From an uncultured Gemmatimonadales bacterium (GTDB taxonomy: Bacteria > Gemmatimonadota > Gemmatimonadetes > Longimicrobiales > Gaopeijiaceae), in the NCBI GenBank assembly GCA_963809895.1, contig CAWELD010000003.1:1536001-1600000 (forward strand): a stretch of DNA of 64,000 nucleotides. The letters run 5' to 3'. Shown piece after piece: positions 18,001-39,000 of this stretch. How positions within the stretch are numbered: the first letter of the stretch is position 1; each line of letters starts with the position of its first letter. Position numbers: made by a program.

Positions 18001-21000
18001 GTCACGCCGGGATCCGGCGGCGACCCGACCTACGAGTACCGTGTGGACGGCCGCACGGAGCCCTTCGACGCCCAGGCGCGCGCCTGGTACCAGGGCATGC
18101 TCCTGCAGGTCTTCCGGCGGGGCGGCTACATGGCCGAAGAGCGCGTCGCCGCCCTGCTCAGGACCGGCGGCGTGGACGCCGTCCTCCAGGAGCTCGACCT
18201 CATCCCCTCGGACTACGTGTCGGCGCGCTACGTCGAAGAGCTCATGCGCCAGGCCGACCTCAGCGAGGGCCAGGTCGTGCAACTGGTGGACGAGGCGAGA
18301 GACCGGGTGGACTCCGACCACTACCTGGCCGGGATCCTGACGGCGCTGGCCGAGAACCACGATCTGACCAGTCCGGTCATGGACGCCTTCCTGAGGGCGT
18401 CACGCTCGCTGGACTCCGACCACTACCGGGCCCAGGTCCTCACCACGGCGCTGGACAAGGGCACGCTGCAGACGGGACAGGTGGAGGCGCTGCTGGCGTC
18501 GGCCTCGGAGATCGACTCCGATCACTACCTGGCCCAGATCCTGGACTCGGTCGCCGAGCGCTACGCGCTGAACCCGTCCATGCGCGGCGCGTACCTGCGG
18601 GCCGTGGAGTCCATCGAGTCCGACCACTACCGCACCCAGGTGCTGTCCGGGCTCCTGGACCGCGGTGACCTGGACGCGGGCGAGCTGTCCGAGGTGCTAC
18701 GCGCCGCCGGGTCCATCGAATCCGATCACTACGTCACCGAGATCCTCAGGAAGGCCTCGACCCGGGAGCTGTCGGGCCCGCTCCAGGACGCCTACCTCGA
18801 CGTGGCCCGGGGCATCGAATCCGACCACTACAAGGCGGAGGCGCTGACCCTGCTGGTGCGGCGCGACCAGGTTTCGAGCGGGTTGTTGGCAGGCGTGCTG
18901 GACGCCACGAGCTCCATCGCGAGCGACCACTACAAGGCCGGCCTCCTGGTGGAGATCGCCCAGCGTCACACGCTGAGCGGCGACCTGCGCGACGCCTACA
19001 TGCGAGCCATGGACAGCGTCGGATCCAAGACCTACCGGGGCCGGGTGGCCGAAGCGCTCCTGGATCAGGGGGGCGACTAGCGTCGGCTCCGGGGGTCGTC
19101 CCCGGCGAAGTGGTAGGAATGGGCGCTGAGGGATTCGAACCCCCGACCTCCTGCTTGTAAGGCAGGCGCTCTAAACCAAGCTGAGCTAAGCGCCCTCGGG
19201 GTGTTTGCCGCTAATCCACGCGACAAACGGGGCTGACAAACCTAGCGGAAGTACGGGCGGTGTGCACGTAGCTGTGCACGTTCACGCCCGCTCCCGAAGC
19301 TCACCGCCGCCGAGCACGACGTTGAGCATCGTCTCGGGGTCGGCCTGCTGGTACGAGTCCTTGAGCGCCTTCGTGCTCTTCCAGCCGCCGGCCGCCGCAA
19401 CATCCACGTCGGGTAGGTGCTTCCGCTCCGTGGCCCACTTCCTTCGGTAGGCGTGCCAGAGGGAGCCGTTTTGCGGTTCGACGCCGGCCAGCTTCTCACC
19501 GGCCCTCAGCCACTTATCTGCGAGGTGGCGGGTCATGGGCTGTTCCCGGTCCTCCGGCGACGGGAACAAGGGCGCCGCGCCGATGCCCGGCCGGTCCTTG
19601 CGGATACGGTCGAGCGCAGCCCGCACCGCCGGTCCGATCGGGACGACGGTCTCGCGGTTCGTCTTGTCGGTCTCCGCTGGCCAGCGGATCGCTCCGTGGG
19701 GTCCTTCGTCCAGCAGGAGGTCTCGGTACCGCAGGGCGCACACGGCGGAGATTCGCCGGCCAGTGCCGTTCACGATGTCGAGCAGCTCGCTCAGGTAGCT
19801 CCGTTGCGCCTTTCGCTGGTCCGTCCAGCGCGCCTCCATCTCGACTTGGTCCGACACTGCCCGGATGGCTTCGTATCGGTCCTGCGTCGCCACAGGGCGC
19901 CGAGGGTTCTCTTCGTGCGGTGCGTCGAAGCCTCGGACGGGGTTCTCGCGCATGAGGTAGTGGCCCTCGGGCATGCGCCACTTCGAGGCCCAATTGAACA
20001 CCCACCGCAGCCACTTGCAGTCGGCCTCCACGGTCCGGGCGCGCACCGGCCGGGGCTTGGTGTCACCCTTGGGACGTCGGCCTCGCGCGTCGATCATGCC
20101 GGACGCCCGAGCGTCGATGAACCGCTCCCAGTCCCGCAGGGCCACGTCGTGCGGGTCCAGATCACTTCCGAGGACCCGAAGCCACATCTCGAACCGTCGC
20201 TCGTCGGCGCGCTGCTCGCGCTGGCTCTTGCGCGGCGTCCTGTGGCGCCTGTAAAGGCCGAAGACTTCACCGAGGGTGGTCTCCCCCTTCGAGTGCCGTT
20301 CATCGGCGTCAGCGACGCATGCAGCCTGCTTCAGGGCGTAGGCCTTCGCACGGTCCCGGTCCCGGTAGCCCAATGAGCGCCGAACGTGTGCTCCGGCGTC
20401 CCCTTTGTTGGGGTCCCAGTACCGGACGTACAGCGGTCCCCCCGGGGTGCGCTCGTAGACGGTGATGGTGTTCGGGCGGTCCCCCGCCGAGAACGACCAT
20501 CGCTTCCGCTTCTTCCGCTTCACCACGATCCCTCCTGATGCTGTAGGCGAGTGGCGAGAGCCTCATGCCCCCGCTCACGCCTATCCTGCGGTCCATCCTT
20601 CATGACGCAAGCCTCGTCTCGCGAAGCTCGGCGGCGATGTCGGGGCCGTCCTGACTCGCGGCGCCGGGGAATGAGGGGTGGTTCGGGCGGGTGGGTAGGT
20701 CGCAGCGCCGGATGCGTGGGCTCCCCGACTCGCCGGCGTTGGGGATCTTGCCTTCGGCGACTCTCTGCTGGAGCGTCGAGTACGCGTAGCCGGACTCCTC
20801 GGCGGCCTCCTGGAGCGTGAGTGACTGCGTCCGCCACGCGTGGATGGCATCGTCCAACTCGCCAGCGTAGCTGCGGGCCATGGATGCAGCGTCGTCCAGC
20901 CCCCTTCGGTCGAACGTCTCCGCCTCGTCGAGCCAGCGCTCGCATAGGTCGTGCAGGGGCTCCACGTTCACGGCGCGGGCACCGCCTCGGGCTCGGGGCT

Positions 21001-36000: not shown

Positions 36001-39000
36001 TGGATCGGGTTGGGCTTCGAACCCGACCGGGTGTCGGATCTAGAGTATGACGTCGAGGGCACGCTTTGGATGCCGACGCGTGCGGGCGGGTTCCCTCGCA
36101 TCGAGTTTCGACACACGCACTACCCCCGCGAAAGTGAACTGTGGTTCTACGGGGGTCCTCGACAGGCCGCCAATTGGGGCTTCCAGCTCGATGCCCTTGG
36201 AGACAGAGTGGGCGGTTCGATGTCTCTGAGCCTCGTGCCGGACATCGGGTGGGTCGTGCACGAGTTGGAACTCCGCGTGCCCTACGTAAGGCGCCATCAA
36301 GCACCCGTTGCCGGCTCGGATTTCCGCCCGTACCTGAGACGTGGTGAGAACATCCGCAATCTCGAAGGGTGCTGTGGCCTCACCTTTCCGGCGCATTGGT
36401 ACCTTCACCACGTCGAGCTTCGGAGGTTCGTGTTGTTGTCCGCCCAAACAGGCGGTGGGTGAACATCGTGAGCATCAGCGCGCACAGGCGGCGACGGACC
36501 TCATCGACTCCAGATCAGTGACATATGCAAGATTCAAGTTTCAATGGCGAATCGCCCGGCTTTAACCGCCTTTGACTGCTGGTTGAGGCTCTGGTGCGAG
36601 CACTCATGGCGACCGTTCTAGCTGGGCTTCCGCTCTCGATCGAACCCGAGCCCAACGCGGTCCGAACGTGCGGGCGGGGCGCGTCGCCCCTGTGCACAAA
36701 CCTGTGCACAAACGAAGCCCCGAACCCCGTGAATCGCCGTCGCAGGCGTCCACGAGATCCGGGGCTCATGCCGCATTCCTACGCGACATCCGGGAAATCA
36801 GCCCAAAGGCCGGTGAGCTTGTAAGGCAGGCGCTCTAAACCAGGCTGAGCTAAGCGCCCTCGGGGTCGTGCCGCACGCGAGTCTGCATCGACCGACGCCG
36901 GAAGCTAGCGGCGCGGCCCGGGACGTGTACACCTCCCGAAACCCGCACCCCTCGCGGCCCGTCGTGCACGGGTATGAACACCCGCTGCACCATCGGACTC
37001 TCGACGCCCCGCCCGCCACGCCCCATCTTTGAGGCCCCGCGACCCTTCGGCCTCCATGTCGGCCCCCCCAACACCACGGCCCCGAGTGGCCCAACGGGGA
37101 TATGACTCGAACACTCATTCTCGGCTCGCTCCTGGGCCTCTTCTCCGGTGCCGTGCCCGGCCCCTTCACCGCCATGATCGCGGTGACGGCGCTGCGCCAC
37201 GGGTTCTGGGCGGGCTTCCGCGTCGCCGTCATCCCCCTGGCGTCGGAGACGGCGGTGATGGCGCTGACGGCGCTCCTGCTGTCCCAGCTCCCCGGGCAGG
37301 CACTCCGCTGGATGGGCATCGTCGGCGGCGTGTTCGTCTTCTTCCTGGCCATGCGCACCTTCAAGGAGTCGCGGGAGAGCCCCCACGAGGAACCGGAGGT
37401 GAGCTCCGGCCGCCGCACCCTGGAGAGCATGCTCCTGGCCGTGTTGTCGCCAGCGCCCTGGGTCTTCTGGCTCCTGGTGGGCTCACCGCTCTTCCTGGGC
37501 GCCTACCATCAGGGTTGGGGCCACGCCGCGGCCTTCCTGGGCTCGTTCCTGGGGGTCTTCGTGGGGATCTACGTGGGCGTGGCGCGCGCCGCCTCGTTCG
37601 GGCACAAGCGCCTGCCGGAGCACTGGTACCGACGGATCATGGTGGGGGCCGCGGTGGGCTTGTTCCTGGCCGGGGTGGTGCTGGTCTGGCAGTCGTGGGT
37701 GGGCAACTTCCACCGCATGGTCACGGGCTCCCAGAGCATCCGGGACATCGTCCAGGACACGCTCCGGATCCACGGATCCCGGTAGGGACCCACCGGCGGC
37801 GGCCCATACCGACGAGGCGGGGTCGCGCCCGGCGCCTGCGTTCAGGAGCCGATGAGAATCGGAAGCGCCGCCAGACCGATGTAGGCCAGGAAGGCCACGA
37901 GCATCCAGCGCACGAAGATCCGCCCTCGCTGCACGTTGGCGGTGGCCCGATTGGAGGCCACAAGGAGCGCCACGCCCAGCGCGACGATGACGGCGAGCAG
38001 GATGGGCAGGCTCATGGGCCGTCCCCTCGTCAGAGGATGATGGCCAGGGGCAGGAGCACCACGTAACCCAGCACCAGCAGGAGCGGCGCGGCCGTGATGG
38101 AGCCCTGGGCCAGCAACCAGTAGCCCAGGACCAAGGCCACGAGACCCGCCAACGCCATCGCCAGATTGACGCGGCTGAATCGGAGGGAGCCCACGTCTCC
38201 CTCGGCGGGGCTGGATCTACGCTTGGTCATGGTGTCCAAGGCTACCGGGTCGGTGGCTTGCGATCAAGACGCCATCCCCCGCATCACGCCGCGTCACGAG
38301 CCCGGGACCTCCAACTCGAAGCGATCCACGTAGCGCTGAAGGCGCGATCGGGAGATCCCCAGCACCCGGGCGGCCTCGCTCTTGTTGCCCTCGGTGTGAT
38401 GGAGCACGTGCTGGACGTGCTCGGCCACGACGCGGTCCAGGCTGAGGTCTTCGCCCTCGGGTCCCGGTTTCCCCTGGCGAATGCCGCCGGTCCCTTCACT
38501 GGTCCCTCCGTCCATGCCCAGGTTCAGGTGCTCCGCCGTGATGGCAGTGCCCCGGGCCACGATGGCGGCCCGGGTGAGGGCATTCTCCATCTCGCGGACG
38601 TTGCCGGGCCAGGCATACCCTTTGAGCTGCTCCATGGCGGCGTCGGCGATGTGGCGCACGGCGCTCCCGGTCTCCCTGCGGATGCGCGCCAGGAGTGCGT
38701 CGGCCAGGAGCGGGATGTCGTCCCTGCGATCACGCAACGGCGGAACCTCGATCTCCACCACGCGCAGGCGGAAATAGAGATCCTCGCGAAAGCTGCCCTC
38801 CTCGACCAGCGCCTCCATGGGCTGGTGGGTGGCGGCGATGACGCGGGCATCCGTGTGCCTGGGAGCCTCGCCGCCCACCGGATAGTAGGTGCGTTCCTGA
38901 AGCACCCGCAGGAGCTTGGTCTGGAACTCCGGCGAGGTGTCACCGATCTCGTCCAGGAAGATGGTGCCGCTGCCGGCGAGCTCGAAGTAGCCCTTGCGCC

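Follow-up and report, generated by a model that had tools for sequence, protein, structure and literature searches.

A probable integrative island that supplies the 5' half of tRNA-Val(UAC) in a Gemmatimonadota genome

Introduction

How does a genome come to carry an intact tRNA-Val(UAC) gene, a displaced copy of the 5' part of that gene upstream of it in the same orientation, and an integrase gene between the two? We examined this arrangement in a 64-kb window (the whole stretch of DNA analysed), following a survey of the genome which had proposed an island between the two tRNA sequences, formed by an element that crosses over on the 3' side of the anticodon loop and brings a promoter, a leader and a 5' half of its own. 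We conclude, with a probability of about 0.85, that 19196-36816 is an integrated island that entered the anticodon stem-loop of tRNA-Val(UAC) by means of a tyrosine integrase, in reversed orientation. The island would provide the first half of the genome's sole tRNA-Val(UAC) gene, and from the unusual upstream side.

Results and discussion

Limits of the island

ARAGORN found a single tRNA gene in the window, tRNA-Val(UAC), and no other tRNA with a UAC anticodon among the 48 tRNAs of the 11 contigs of the genome. Part of its leader and its first 43 nucleotides recur at the far end of the island, where the host upstream region still precedes them (Table 1). The two copies are 98% identical over 50 nt, with a lone mismatch at tRNA nt 17, while the 3' half of the gene has no second copy in the genome by BLAST, as the survey had stated. 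The single mismatch in the displaced 5' half likewise agrees with the survey, but the 15 nt of leader said to be repeated shrink to 7 identical nt in the alignment. GC content is about 0.58-0.69 between the repeats and about 0.70-0.77 outside them, and ARAGORN, BLAST and low GC together bear out an island of 17.7 kb in this place.

The configuration is that of a tRNA-gene integrative island, in which an intact tRNA gene and a fragment in the same orientation bracket an integrase-bearing segment, and more precisely that of a reverse-orientation (5'-supplying) island, the fragment being the 5' part and lying upstream of the intact gene. A conventional 3'-supplying island was rejected at tRNA-Val on these same grounds. 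The D-loop (nt 16-20) reads CTTGG in the intact gene and CCTGG in the displaced copy; CCTGG is seen in the tRNA-Val genes of 5 of 13 relatives, whereas CTTGG is absent from those of all 13 and is found in the element-linked tRNA-Val genes of loci L025 and L026. Because the lone mismatch lies at nt 17, the crossover in tRNA-Val would have taken place 3' of that position.

Table 1. Features of the island and its ends, in window coordinates.
Feature	Position	Strand	Evidence or remark
Intact tRNA-Val(UAC)	19120..19195	-	ARAGORN; read as attR, element 5' part plus host 3' part
Direct repeat, right copy, 50 nt (7 nt leader plus tRNA nt 1-43)	19153..19202	-	BLAST
Candidate element-borne promoter, TTGTCA-17 nt-GATTAG	19211..19239	-	From the sequence; resembles host tRNA promoters
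Tandem GTGCACA-N5-GTGCACA, just past integrase stop; putative arm-type sites, P arm	19261..19279	-	Pattern scan
Tyrosine integrase, 414 aa, upstream of and co-directional with tRNA-Val	19282..20526	-	PF00589, phrog_1
Second cyclase-like gene	23239-24036	-	PADLOC HMM 1e-75
NucC nuclease	24036-24791	-	PADLOC HMM 6.2e-75
CBASS E2	24781-25296	-	PADLOC HMM 9.9e-39
CBASS cyclase	25223-26269	-	PADLOC HMM 4.7e-59
Second tyrosine recombinase, 336 aa, SAM-like N-terminal domain	27247..28257	+	PF00589 7.6e-20, PF02899
Segment 85% identical to C10:1226437-1227708, inside tRNA-Ala island	29917..31190	-	blastn
Conserved left end (P' arm), common to the element after the tRNA-Ala 5' half on C10	36569..36816	-	blastn
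Tandem GTGCACA-N5-GTGCACA in left end; putative arm-type sites	36691..36710	-	Pattern scan
Displaced host copy (read as attL), 7 nt leader plus tRNA-Val nt 1-43	36817..36866	-	BLAST

Integrase, arm-type sites and cargo

The integrase beside tRNA-Val belongs to the PF00589 family (E = 9.5e-10; 39 bits against a cut-off of 27.1) and matches the phrog_1 integrase at 3.4e-24. Residues R258, K288, H358, R361, W382 and Y392, which from the family motif order we take to be the catalytic R-K-H-R-(H/W)-Y, are invariant across a 7-homologue alignment. The reading frame is unbroken, and its stop codon (19282-19284) lies 79 nt from the beginning of the direct repeat and 86 nt from the 5' end of the tRNA, the latter as reported by the survey. 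No conserved excisionase adjoins the integrase gene.

The tandem GTGCACA-N5-GTGCACA occurs at just two places in the 64 kb, the two island ends, against 0.01 expected (three matches, of which two are both strands of one site). At either end the pair stands 100-110 nt from the anticodon loop, the left one about 109 nt from the displaced loop. In 8 related loci homologous tandem repeats stand in the corresponding place; L034 has four copies. The attP of the element would have run from the integrase stop through the tandem arm repeats, a leader of ~60 nt and tRNA nt 1-43 to the left end with its second arm-repeat pair. Integration would have stranded the host promoter and the original 5' half at the island's far, upstream end and joined the element's leader and 5' half to the host 3' half of tRNA-Val; the island could presumably be excised again. 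Against this reading stands the lack of an empty site: the flanking genes are not syntenic in 30 relatives, contigs from 4 runs hold no usable attB or attP joint, and the sole attP-like junction seen comes from a relative (L047).

The cargo at 23239-26269 (minus strand), with Pfam matches to SMODS and DUF6602, includes, by PADLOC models, the CD-NTase cyclase, E2-like protein and effector that make up a type II CBASS operon. As in type II (E2-containing) CBASS with a NucC effector, the predicted cyclase, E2 and NucC genes form one operon; unlike it, the island has an extra cyclase-like gene downstream. Judged from sequence, the three genes would be an anti-phage defence set on a mobile island. 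The second tyrosine recombinase has no paralogue elsewhere in the genome.

Geometry in the integrase clade

To see how relatives of the integrase are placed, we compared three sets of loci. In genomes, 8 of 12 loci have an intact same-strand tRNA 102-128 nt past the integrase (Val-UAC, Arg-CCG, Arg-CCU or Thr-UGU). The 80 metagenome loci divide into 33 with a same-strand tRNA (spacer 64-269 nt), 3 convergent, 21 without a tRNA within 400 nt and 23 too short to judge, and include a nested subclade in which the integrase is followed by a tRNA 3' part alone. Loci from the phylum (n = 20) are same-strand in 6 cases, convergent in 7 and without a tRNA in 7, all of the convergent ones being at most 48% identical to the query integrase. 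When the same-strand label is mapped on a tree of 73 integrases, 10 changes are needed, compared with a mean of 24.2 after shuffling, and none of 500 shuffles was as low. The 5'-supplying geometry is the norm in the integrase clade, with a fixed spacer of roughly 100 nt, tandem arm repeats and at least ten tRNA identities (Val-UAC, Ala-UGC, Pro-GGG, Pro-UGG, Asn, Ile, Thr-UGU, Arg-CCG, Arg-ACG and Arg-CCU); its members come mostly from records titled Gemmatimonadota.

Six further islands carry a displaced 5' half in cis, ending at nt 40-43: G014 (2.9 kb), G035 (4.5 kb), G267 (5.9 kb), G033 (19 kb), G031 (47 kb) and G392 (56.5 kb). The displaced half is on other contigs in G036 and G032, and none was found in the 60 kb searched in G034 and G161; these four, like the 21 metagenome loci without a tRNA and the nested subclade, count against the reading. 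In L047 the integrase, arm repeats and leader are followed by tRNA-Arg nt 1-41 and then by non-tRNA DNA, which is an attP-like or tandem junction. Integrase paralogues at 36-40% identity show the conventional geometry at G000 tRNA-Lys and G008 tRNA-Ala, and where relatives have conventional islands at the same tRNA or a similar one, the block of identity begins at nt 30-34. The identity blocks of the two island types therefore overlap only at the anticodon loop, give or take 2-3 nt. The survey's proposal that the element replaces the 5' half is supported, and the geometry, with recombination at the anticodon stem-loop and leader and 5' half supplied by the element, recurs across the clade.

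A probable sibling element at tRNA-Ala(UGC)

Some 10 kb from the end of contig C10, the 5' 40 nt of tRNA-Ala(UGC) (C10:1218901-1218940) run into sequence that is 94.5% identical over 219 nt, and 100% over 53 nt, to the left end of the Val island (81.5% over 314 nt in a gapped alignment), GTGCACA motif included. Blastn thereby reproduces the closely similar island end of ~300 nt that the survey had described behind tRNA-Ala; a sample of 400 other genomes of the phylum did not contain it. A sibling element with nearly the same left end would have entered tRNA-Ala(UGC), and nine same-strand loci at tRNA-Ala(UGC) in the metagenome and phylum sets match the right end expected for such an island. 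A lone tRNA-Ala 3' half, beginning GCTTTGCAAGC, lies at C3:~8896-8940, ~8.9 kb from the start of contig C3, and base-pairs through its acceptor strand with the 5' half on C10, G3:U70 included.

ARAGORN recovered no intact tRNA-Ala(UGC) among the 48 tRNAs of the 11 contigs. What the survey had said of its absence stands for the assembly only, as the survey itself allowed. Genome completeness is 95%, each half sits no more than 10 kb from a contig end, and the gene is likely missing through an assembly gap. GCA codons number 8,485 in 2,671 coding-like frames by a crude count, of the same order as the 10,050 given earlier. No second integrase of the Val-island (intA-like) kind occurs upstream of the C3 3' half or elsewhere in the assembly, so that an element end must be missing from it; most likely the sibling's integrase-proximal end and the rebuilt tRNA-Ala fall in the gap between the C10 end and the C3 start.

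One 5'-supplying element by itself would not be expected to leave the lone 3' half on C3. We somewhat favour two elements at the Ala locus, one 5'-supplying on the C10 side and one conventional, 3'-supplying on the C3 side. The unassembled gap would then hold both integrases and the intact tRNA-Ala; this view is compatible with the best explanation of the Val island. The C3 fragment begins 2 nt before the anticodon loop, much as conventional displaced 3' fragments do (nt 31 in G008, nt 30 in G000 tRNA-Lys), in G036 a single tRNA is represented by a 5' fragment as well as a 3' one, and the IS transposases inside the C10 island could have broken the assembly. Against it, neither integrase nor tRNA-Ala is in any contig, low GC flanks the C3 fragment on both sides, and synteny with relatives gave nothing in support of the C10 end and C3 start as neighbours.

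Transcription of the rebuilt tRNA-Val

Since the element's own leader and 5' half would be joined to the host 3' half, tRNA-Val would be transcribed either from element DNA or by read-through of the integrase gene. The candidate for an element-borne promoter, TTGTCA-17-GATTAG, ends 15 nt upstream of tRNA-Val and resembles the host tRNA promoters TTGACC-17-GATTAA and TTGACC-17-GATTAT. Neither the spacer nor the region before the displaced host copy gave a promoter in a scan for the strict sigma-70 consensus. A TAGTT/TAAGTT element and a GAAGTAC block are conserved in many relatives, 10-35 nt before the tRNA, and the spacer in the window is without the hairpin and GAAGTAC cassette that many of them carry.

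Read-through, with no promoter for the rebuilt gene itself, as reported for archaeal pTN3-like elements, is a doubtful though serious alternative. tRNA-Val reads in the same direction as the integrase gene, close behind its stop codon, with neither a terminator-like site nor a strict-consensus promoter between them; but the candidate promoter resembles those of the genome's other tRNAs, the upstream blocks are kept in many relatives, and an essential tRNA under a normally low-expressed integrase gene would be a poor arrangement.

Unlikely readings: a split tRNA-Ala or a chance fragment

It is improbable that tRNA-Ala(UGC) is truly split in the cell, its only copy having been cut and never rebuilt, whether by the C10 element or by a Val-type element that went in off-target, the two anticodon arms being nearly identical. 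Both halves are indeed in the contigs and an intact copy in none, tRNA-Val and tRNA-Ala are identical at 26 of 28 positions around the anticodon arm, five loci (L031, L090, L093, L096 and L101) have an integrase followed only by a tRNA 3' part, and G037 has two lone tRNA-Pro(UGG) 3' parts, an intact copy not being found there. Yet GCA codons are used (~8,500), and the tRNAs-Ala with GGC and CGC anticodons cannot decode GCA under standard wobble rules. The incomplete assembly, with both tRNA halves at most 10 kb from contig ends and no second intA-like integrase, also speaks against a true split, as do the nine relatives that rebuild tRNA-Ala(UGC) beside an integrase and the entirely Ala-type attL loop on C10.

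Although neither an empty site nor a product of excision came to light, it is hardly credible that the displaced 5' fragment is a chance pseudogene or segmental duplication beside an unrelated conventional insertion, as seven independent islands, and the Ala junction too, share the end register nt 40-43, and integrase, arm motifs and GC shift coincide exactly with the repeats.

Relation to known systems

Insertion from the 5' side is rare, already described and not new in kind. Zhao and Williams reportedly described reverse-orientation tRNA-integrating elements in 2002, and Williams is said to have classed anticodon-loop islands as class I tRNA islands in the same year. The novelty that the survey saw in 5'-half replacement is not supported, as reverse-orientation tRNA islands have already been published. 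The Islander configuration filter, as described, accepts 5' fragments upstream of the tDNA (PMC4383910). By the account in PMC8371274, archaeal pTN3-like integrases use a tRNA 5' half as attB and the tRNA is expressed from the integrase promoter, a similar situation being encountered 'seldomly' in bacteria; IntpTN3 is discussed there with the 'suicidal' integrases, in which integration splits the integrase gene, and Cossu et al. (2017) and Krupovic and Bamford (2008) are cited for the pTN3-like work.

The Val island shares with reverse-orientation elements a 5' fragment upstream in the same orientation, the configuration that Islander accepts (PMC4383910), and an integrase inside the island, and in both the element must provide the DNA upstream of the tRNA; going by those descriptions, it differs in that the geometry is here the rule for a whole integrase clade, with a fixed ~100 nt spacer and tandem arm repeats. 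With class I islands, as characterised in PMC8371274, it has in common a tyrosine integrase, an identity block bounded by the anticodon stem-loop and an integrase 3' end beside the att site, but here it is the 5' half, not the 3' half, that the element brings, so that tRNA and integrase gene point the same way and the tRNA is severed from its native promoter. There is an analogy with the pTN3-like elements, where attB is likewise the tRNA 5' half and the rebuilt tRNA is, as it may be here, expressed from element DNA; set against their description (PMC8371274), the integrase gene in the window is intact, the att site lies past its stop codon and the host is bacterial. A suicidal integrase of the pTN3 type, with attP within its own gene, was rejected, the ORF being whole at 414 aa and the repeat lying outside it.

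A CBASS island between tRNA-Val(UAC) and its displaced 5' half

The Val island, the segment between the intact tRNA-Val(UAC) gene (read as attR) and a displaced copy of its 5' half (read as attL), is a genuine, well-delimited tRNA island of reverse orientation with defence cargo. ARAGORN, BLAST, GC content and the PF00589 match all bear out the survey's finding of an integrase-bearing CBASS island in this position. The displaced copy lies 17.66 kb upstream of the intact gene on the same strand, and 86 nt separate the integrase stop codon from the intact gene (minus-strand reading). 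The alignment gives 7 identical nt of leader in the repeat rather than the 15 nt first reported, and a single mismatch within the tRNA, where C replaces T at nt 17 of the displaced copy. This copy stops at ...CTTACAAGC, 2 bases into the 3' strand of the anticodon stem, with unrelated DNA beyond. Between the repeats GC content is 0.58-0.69, against about 0.70-0.77 outside.

Residues R258, K288, H358, R361, W382 and Y392 of the integrase (intA, our query) are invariant in an alignment of seven homologs. Many ORFs of the island have no family match. Because PHROGs gave no phage structural genes in the island, we withhold the name prophage. Related loci hold no homologs of the small ORF upstream of the integrase (20520-20945) or of the end-proximal ORFs, and thus no conserved excisionase could be named.

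Features of the Val island and of the tRNA-Ala(UGC) halves (window positions unless a contig is named)
Feature	Position	Strand	Remarks
tRNA-Val(UAC), intact	19120-19195	minus	ARAGORN; sole tRNA of the 64-kb window
Tandem GTGCACA-N5-GTGCACA	19261-19279		directly past the integrase stop codon
Tyrosine integrase ORF, 414 aa	19282-20526	minus	TGA stop at 19282-19284; PF00589, phrog_1
Further cyclase-like gene	23239-24036		listed with the CBASS operon
NucC	24036-24791		CBASS operon
CBASS E2	24781-25296		CBASS operon
CBASS cyclase	25223-26269		CBASS operon
Second tyrosine recombinase	27247-28257		within the island
Tandem GTGCACA-N5-GTGCACA	36691-36710		in the left end
Displaced copy, 7 nt leader + tRNA-Val nt 1-43	36817-36866	minus	BLAST 98% over 50 nt
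tRNA-Ala(UGC) 5' 40 nt	C10:1218901-1218940		ends ...TTTGCAAGC, same register as the Val fragment
Lone tRNA-Ala 3' half	C3:~8896-8940		begins GCTTTGCAAGC; acceptor strand pairs with the C10 half

Crossover and putative arm motifs

Chromosomal upstream DNA stays with the host-side copy of tRNA-Val, and the integrase-side copy continues into the genome's only 3' half of tRNA-Val(UAC). The difference at nt 17 places the crossover 3' of that nucleotide. The D-loop CCTGG of the displaced copy also occurs in 5 of 13 relatives' tRNA-Val genes (the unpublished genome G019 is among the 13, outside these five); the CTTGG of the intact gene occurs in none of the 13, yet is found in the element-linked tRNA-Val of two integrase loci, L025 and L026. 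Ordinary islands at the same tRNA (relatives G012, G004 and G024) leave displaced 3' fragments that begin at nt 32-34, and the conventional islands of paralogous integrases begin at nt 30-31 (tRNA-Lys in the source genome, G000, 36% identity; tRNA-Ala(UGC) in G008, 40%). The 5' blocks and 3' blocks overlap only in the anticodon loop +/- 2-3 nt, the classical symmetric core of such integrases as a section of PMC8371274 summarises it.

The tandem GTGCACA motif is confined to two places in the window (0.01 matches expected by chance), with 100-110 nt between each pair and the anticodon loop in the tRNA copy to which it belongs. The pairs are placed as arm-type sites would be, and the integrase presumably binds them.

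Outside the window, the source genome carries a conventional 12-kb island at tRNA-Lys(CUU) (C3:2221664-2233984), where tRNA and integrase are convergent and a displaced 3' fragment of 100% identity (nt 30-74) lies at C3:2221664-2221708; both geometries are therefore present in one genome.

Geometry across the integrase clade

The same-strand (5'-supplying) geometry is the rule for the clade of the window's integrase. Genome records gave 12 loci at 57-71% identity, titled mostly as Gemmatimonadota MAGs, with one Thermoanaerobaculia and one Acidimicrobiaceae. Eight of these have an intact same-strand tRNA 102-128 nt past the integrase (Val-UAC in three, Arg-CCG and Thr-UGU in two each, Arg-CCU in one), and ACGTGCACA-type tandem repeats directly follow the stop codon in the same-strand loci (four copies in L034). 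In the remaining four genome loci, tRNA-Ala(UGC) lies 3.66 kb downstream of the integrase (L030), a 3' tRNA part stands alone beyond it (L031), or the match is a C-terminal integrase fragment (L035) or a 28-residue fragment with a convergent tRNA (L036). A further 80 loci, at 49-77% identity, came from metagenome records. A same-strand tRNA stands 64-269 nt downstream in 33 of them (Ala-UGC 8, Pro-GGG 7, Val-UAC 5, Asn 4, Pro-UGG 3, Ile 3, and Arg-ACG, Arg-CCG and Thr 1 each); three are convergent, 21 lack a tRNA in the following 400 nt, and for 23 the sequence stops less than 200 nt past the match.

In a sample of 400 genomes of the phylum, a member of the integrase family is present in 14, not counting G000; the 20 loci returned comprise six in same-strand arrangement (46-62% identity to the query), seven convergent (all at 48% or less) and seven without a tRNA. 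A quick maximum-likelihood tree was built from 73 integrases of at least 300 aa, leaving out eight rows with internal stop codons and 12 shorter rows. One group of 63 rows (SH-aLRT 87) takes in all same-strand rows, and the same-strand label changes 10 times on the tree; shuffled labels average 24.2 changes, and none of 500 shuffles came as low. The tree has long outgroup branches, and its basal order is weak. In one subclade (L058, L059, L070 and L076) a small ORF, not a tRNA, directly follows the integrase, and its N-terminus resembles, by eye, a ribbon-helix-helix antitoxin.

Six more genomes have a displaced 5' half in cis that stops at nt 40-43 and bounds an island, at tRNA-Val (G014, 2.9 kb; G033, 19 kb; G031, 47 kb), tRNA-Thr (G035, 4.5 kb), tRNA-Pro-UGG (G267, 5.9 kb) and tRNA-Ile (G392, 56.5 kb). 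The G014 island is a remnant with no recognisable integrase, set between intact tRNA-Val(UAC) and displaced nt 1-42 (L013, G014:C264:142-3206), and its three ORFs have no Pfam matches. No displaced 5' half was found in G034, or within 60 kb in G161; in G159 and G111 the contig ends before any could be reached, and in G032 and G036 the 5' fragments sit on other contigs.

That the tRNA 5' half travels with the integrase is shown by a 2-kb metagenome contig (L047:1748-2004), on which the integrase is followed by tandem ACGTGCACAC repeats, leader, tRNA-Arg(CCU) nt 1-41 and non-tRNA DNA with many GCGTCGG repeats. This attP-like arrangement has the look expected of attP or of a junction between two tandem elements. 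The tRNA-Arg(CCU) of G036, the genome of locus L033 (C2:380197-460836, C5:557291), is used from both sides: a 5'-supplying integrase lies upstream, a 5' fragment is on another contig, and two displaced 3' fragments lie downstream, one 33 kb off and one inverted at 80 kb.

Relation to described islands

The replacement of a 5' half had been put forward as a new kind of integration; the configuration is already in print, and the Val island belongs to a known, uncommon kind and overturns nothing. A filter in Islander retains 5' fragments upstream, according to PMC4383910. PMC8371274 states that in bacteria a tRNA gene is rebuilt behind the promoter it had before 'with very few exceptions', and that cases involving the 5' half are 'seldomly' encountered there. 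Literature searches brought up no account of such a clade in Gemmatimonadota, which is a thin basis for claiming absence. The points worth following are the consistency across the clade and the tRNA-Ala locus. Most tools for finding islands and most predictions of att sites take it that the tRNA 3' end is what the element restores; a clade with the 5' side as its rule makes plain where they have to search upstream. Such a clade also offers dozens of natural integrase/attP/attB sets, with a fixed geometry, for trial as integration tools.

Searches for the empty site

Similarity of the DNA flanking tRNA-Val downstream to that of relatives is confined to the tRNA. The neighbouring M56-peptidase gene has homologs in 12 of 30 relatives, and in the two compared (G003 and G024) these are not on the contig of tRNA-Val. 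A 1-kb junction query was contained in no sequencing run (best share 0.33), and none of the short, low-depth Logan contigs of four runs, compared with 18600-37500, spans either junction with 31 nt or more on each side. An apparent joint of 19149 to 36831 is tRNA noise, with 40 foreign letters between its sides. One contig of run X4 (depth 2.9) joins 19491 to 34902, skipping 15.4 kb of the island, and may be a shorter element variant or a chimera.

The two halves of tRNA-Ala(UGC)

That tRNA-Ala(UGC) is left without an intact copy holds for the 11-contig assembly: ARAGORN found none among 48 tRNAs on all contigs. The genome uses GCA codons thousands of times. No tRNA in the ARAGORN list adjoins the single 16S gene, so the rRNA operon is not hiding a copy. 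Seventeen tRNA genes lie within 2.1 kb at C10:356346-358464, where the genome has most tRNAs.

The C10 5' half continues into a left end 94.5% identical to that of the Val island, GTGCACA pair included. The island behind it runs 9.9 kb to the contig end, carries IS transposases and a D12 methylase, and shares with the Val island a 1.3-kb stretch at 85% identity. The surroundings of the C3 3' half contain no intA-like integrase, and elsewhere in the assembly one occurs only at the conventional tRNA-Lys island. A single 5'-supplying element predicts an intact gene at its integrase end and does not fit the lone 3' half, which makes a two-element account the simplest: a 5'-supplying element and a conventional island would flank an intact tRNA-Ala lost in an assembly gap, an account to which we give slightly better than even odds. 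GC content is low (0.61-0.66) on both sides of the lone 3' half at 8896 (locus L012, C3:4000-12000), and the DNA downstream of it may also be foreign. C3:1-8895 has no real similarity to the conventional Ala island of G008. Proteins flanking the two halves gave no synteny, one occurring elsewhere in three of five genomes and the other in none of the five, and tblastx with the tRNA-Ala loci of four relatives matched unrelated G000 contigs.

Lone 3' tRNA parts also occur beside related integrases. In L090, L093, L096 and L101 an anticodon arm plus 3' part (Gln-CUG-like) lies about 150 nt past the integrase with no 5' half, and L031:1750-1795 holds a Pro-UGG-like counterpart. In all of these, arm repeats are followed by a spacer of ~100 nt and then the tRNA part, and the subclade is nested among 5'-supplying integrases; L091 diverges directly past the anticodon loop. 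In G037 two Pro-UGG 3' parts stand alone, and an intact copy did not turn up; the 400 phylum genomes gave no close relative of the Gln-type integrases. Such loci lend some substance to the idea that tRNA-Ala(UGC) is truly split, yet they could just as well be 3'-supplying elements whose integrase sits at their far end, and we consider a true split very improbable.

A more far-reaching reading is that this integrase clade switched wholesale to 5'-half replacement, at no fewer than 10 tRNA identities among Gemmatimonadota and further bacteria of soil and sediment, putting essential single-copy tRNAs under element-borne transcription as an integrase-tRNA unit, that some lineages leave only the 3' part beside the integrase, and that the sole tRNA-Ala(UGC) of G000 is perhaps really split. 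As a whole we think this unlikely (probability about 0.12). If it were true, the integrase-tRNA unit might work as a hold on the host, and expression of the split tRNA-Ala(UGC) would depend on the element.

Expression of the rebuilt tRNA-Val

The cell's sole tRNA-Val(UAC) now depends on mobile-element DNA, a dependence little studied in bacteria. A strict consensus scan gave neither promoter nor terminator in the integrase-tRNA spacer and was equally negative upstream of the host copy left stranded. By eye, TTGTCA (19239-19234) and GATTAG (19216-19211), 17 nt apart and ending 15 nt before tRNA-Val, form a candidate element-borne promoter, which resembles tRNA promoters of G000 such as the TTGACC-17-GATTAA of tRNA-Arg(CCG). 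Read-through from the integrase gene is a live alternative that might instead provide the transcript; PMC8371274 reports such expression for archaeal pTN3-like elements. A cassette missing from the window's spacer occupies the last 45 nt before the tRNA in many relatives and consists of a short hairpin (GCCAGAAATGGC-like), a TAGTT/TAAGTT element and a GAAGTAC block; it is found in loci with differing tRNA identities, including L040, L041, L044, L045, L081, L032, L033, L034 and L104.
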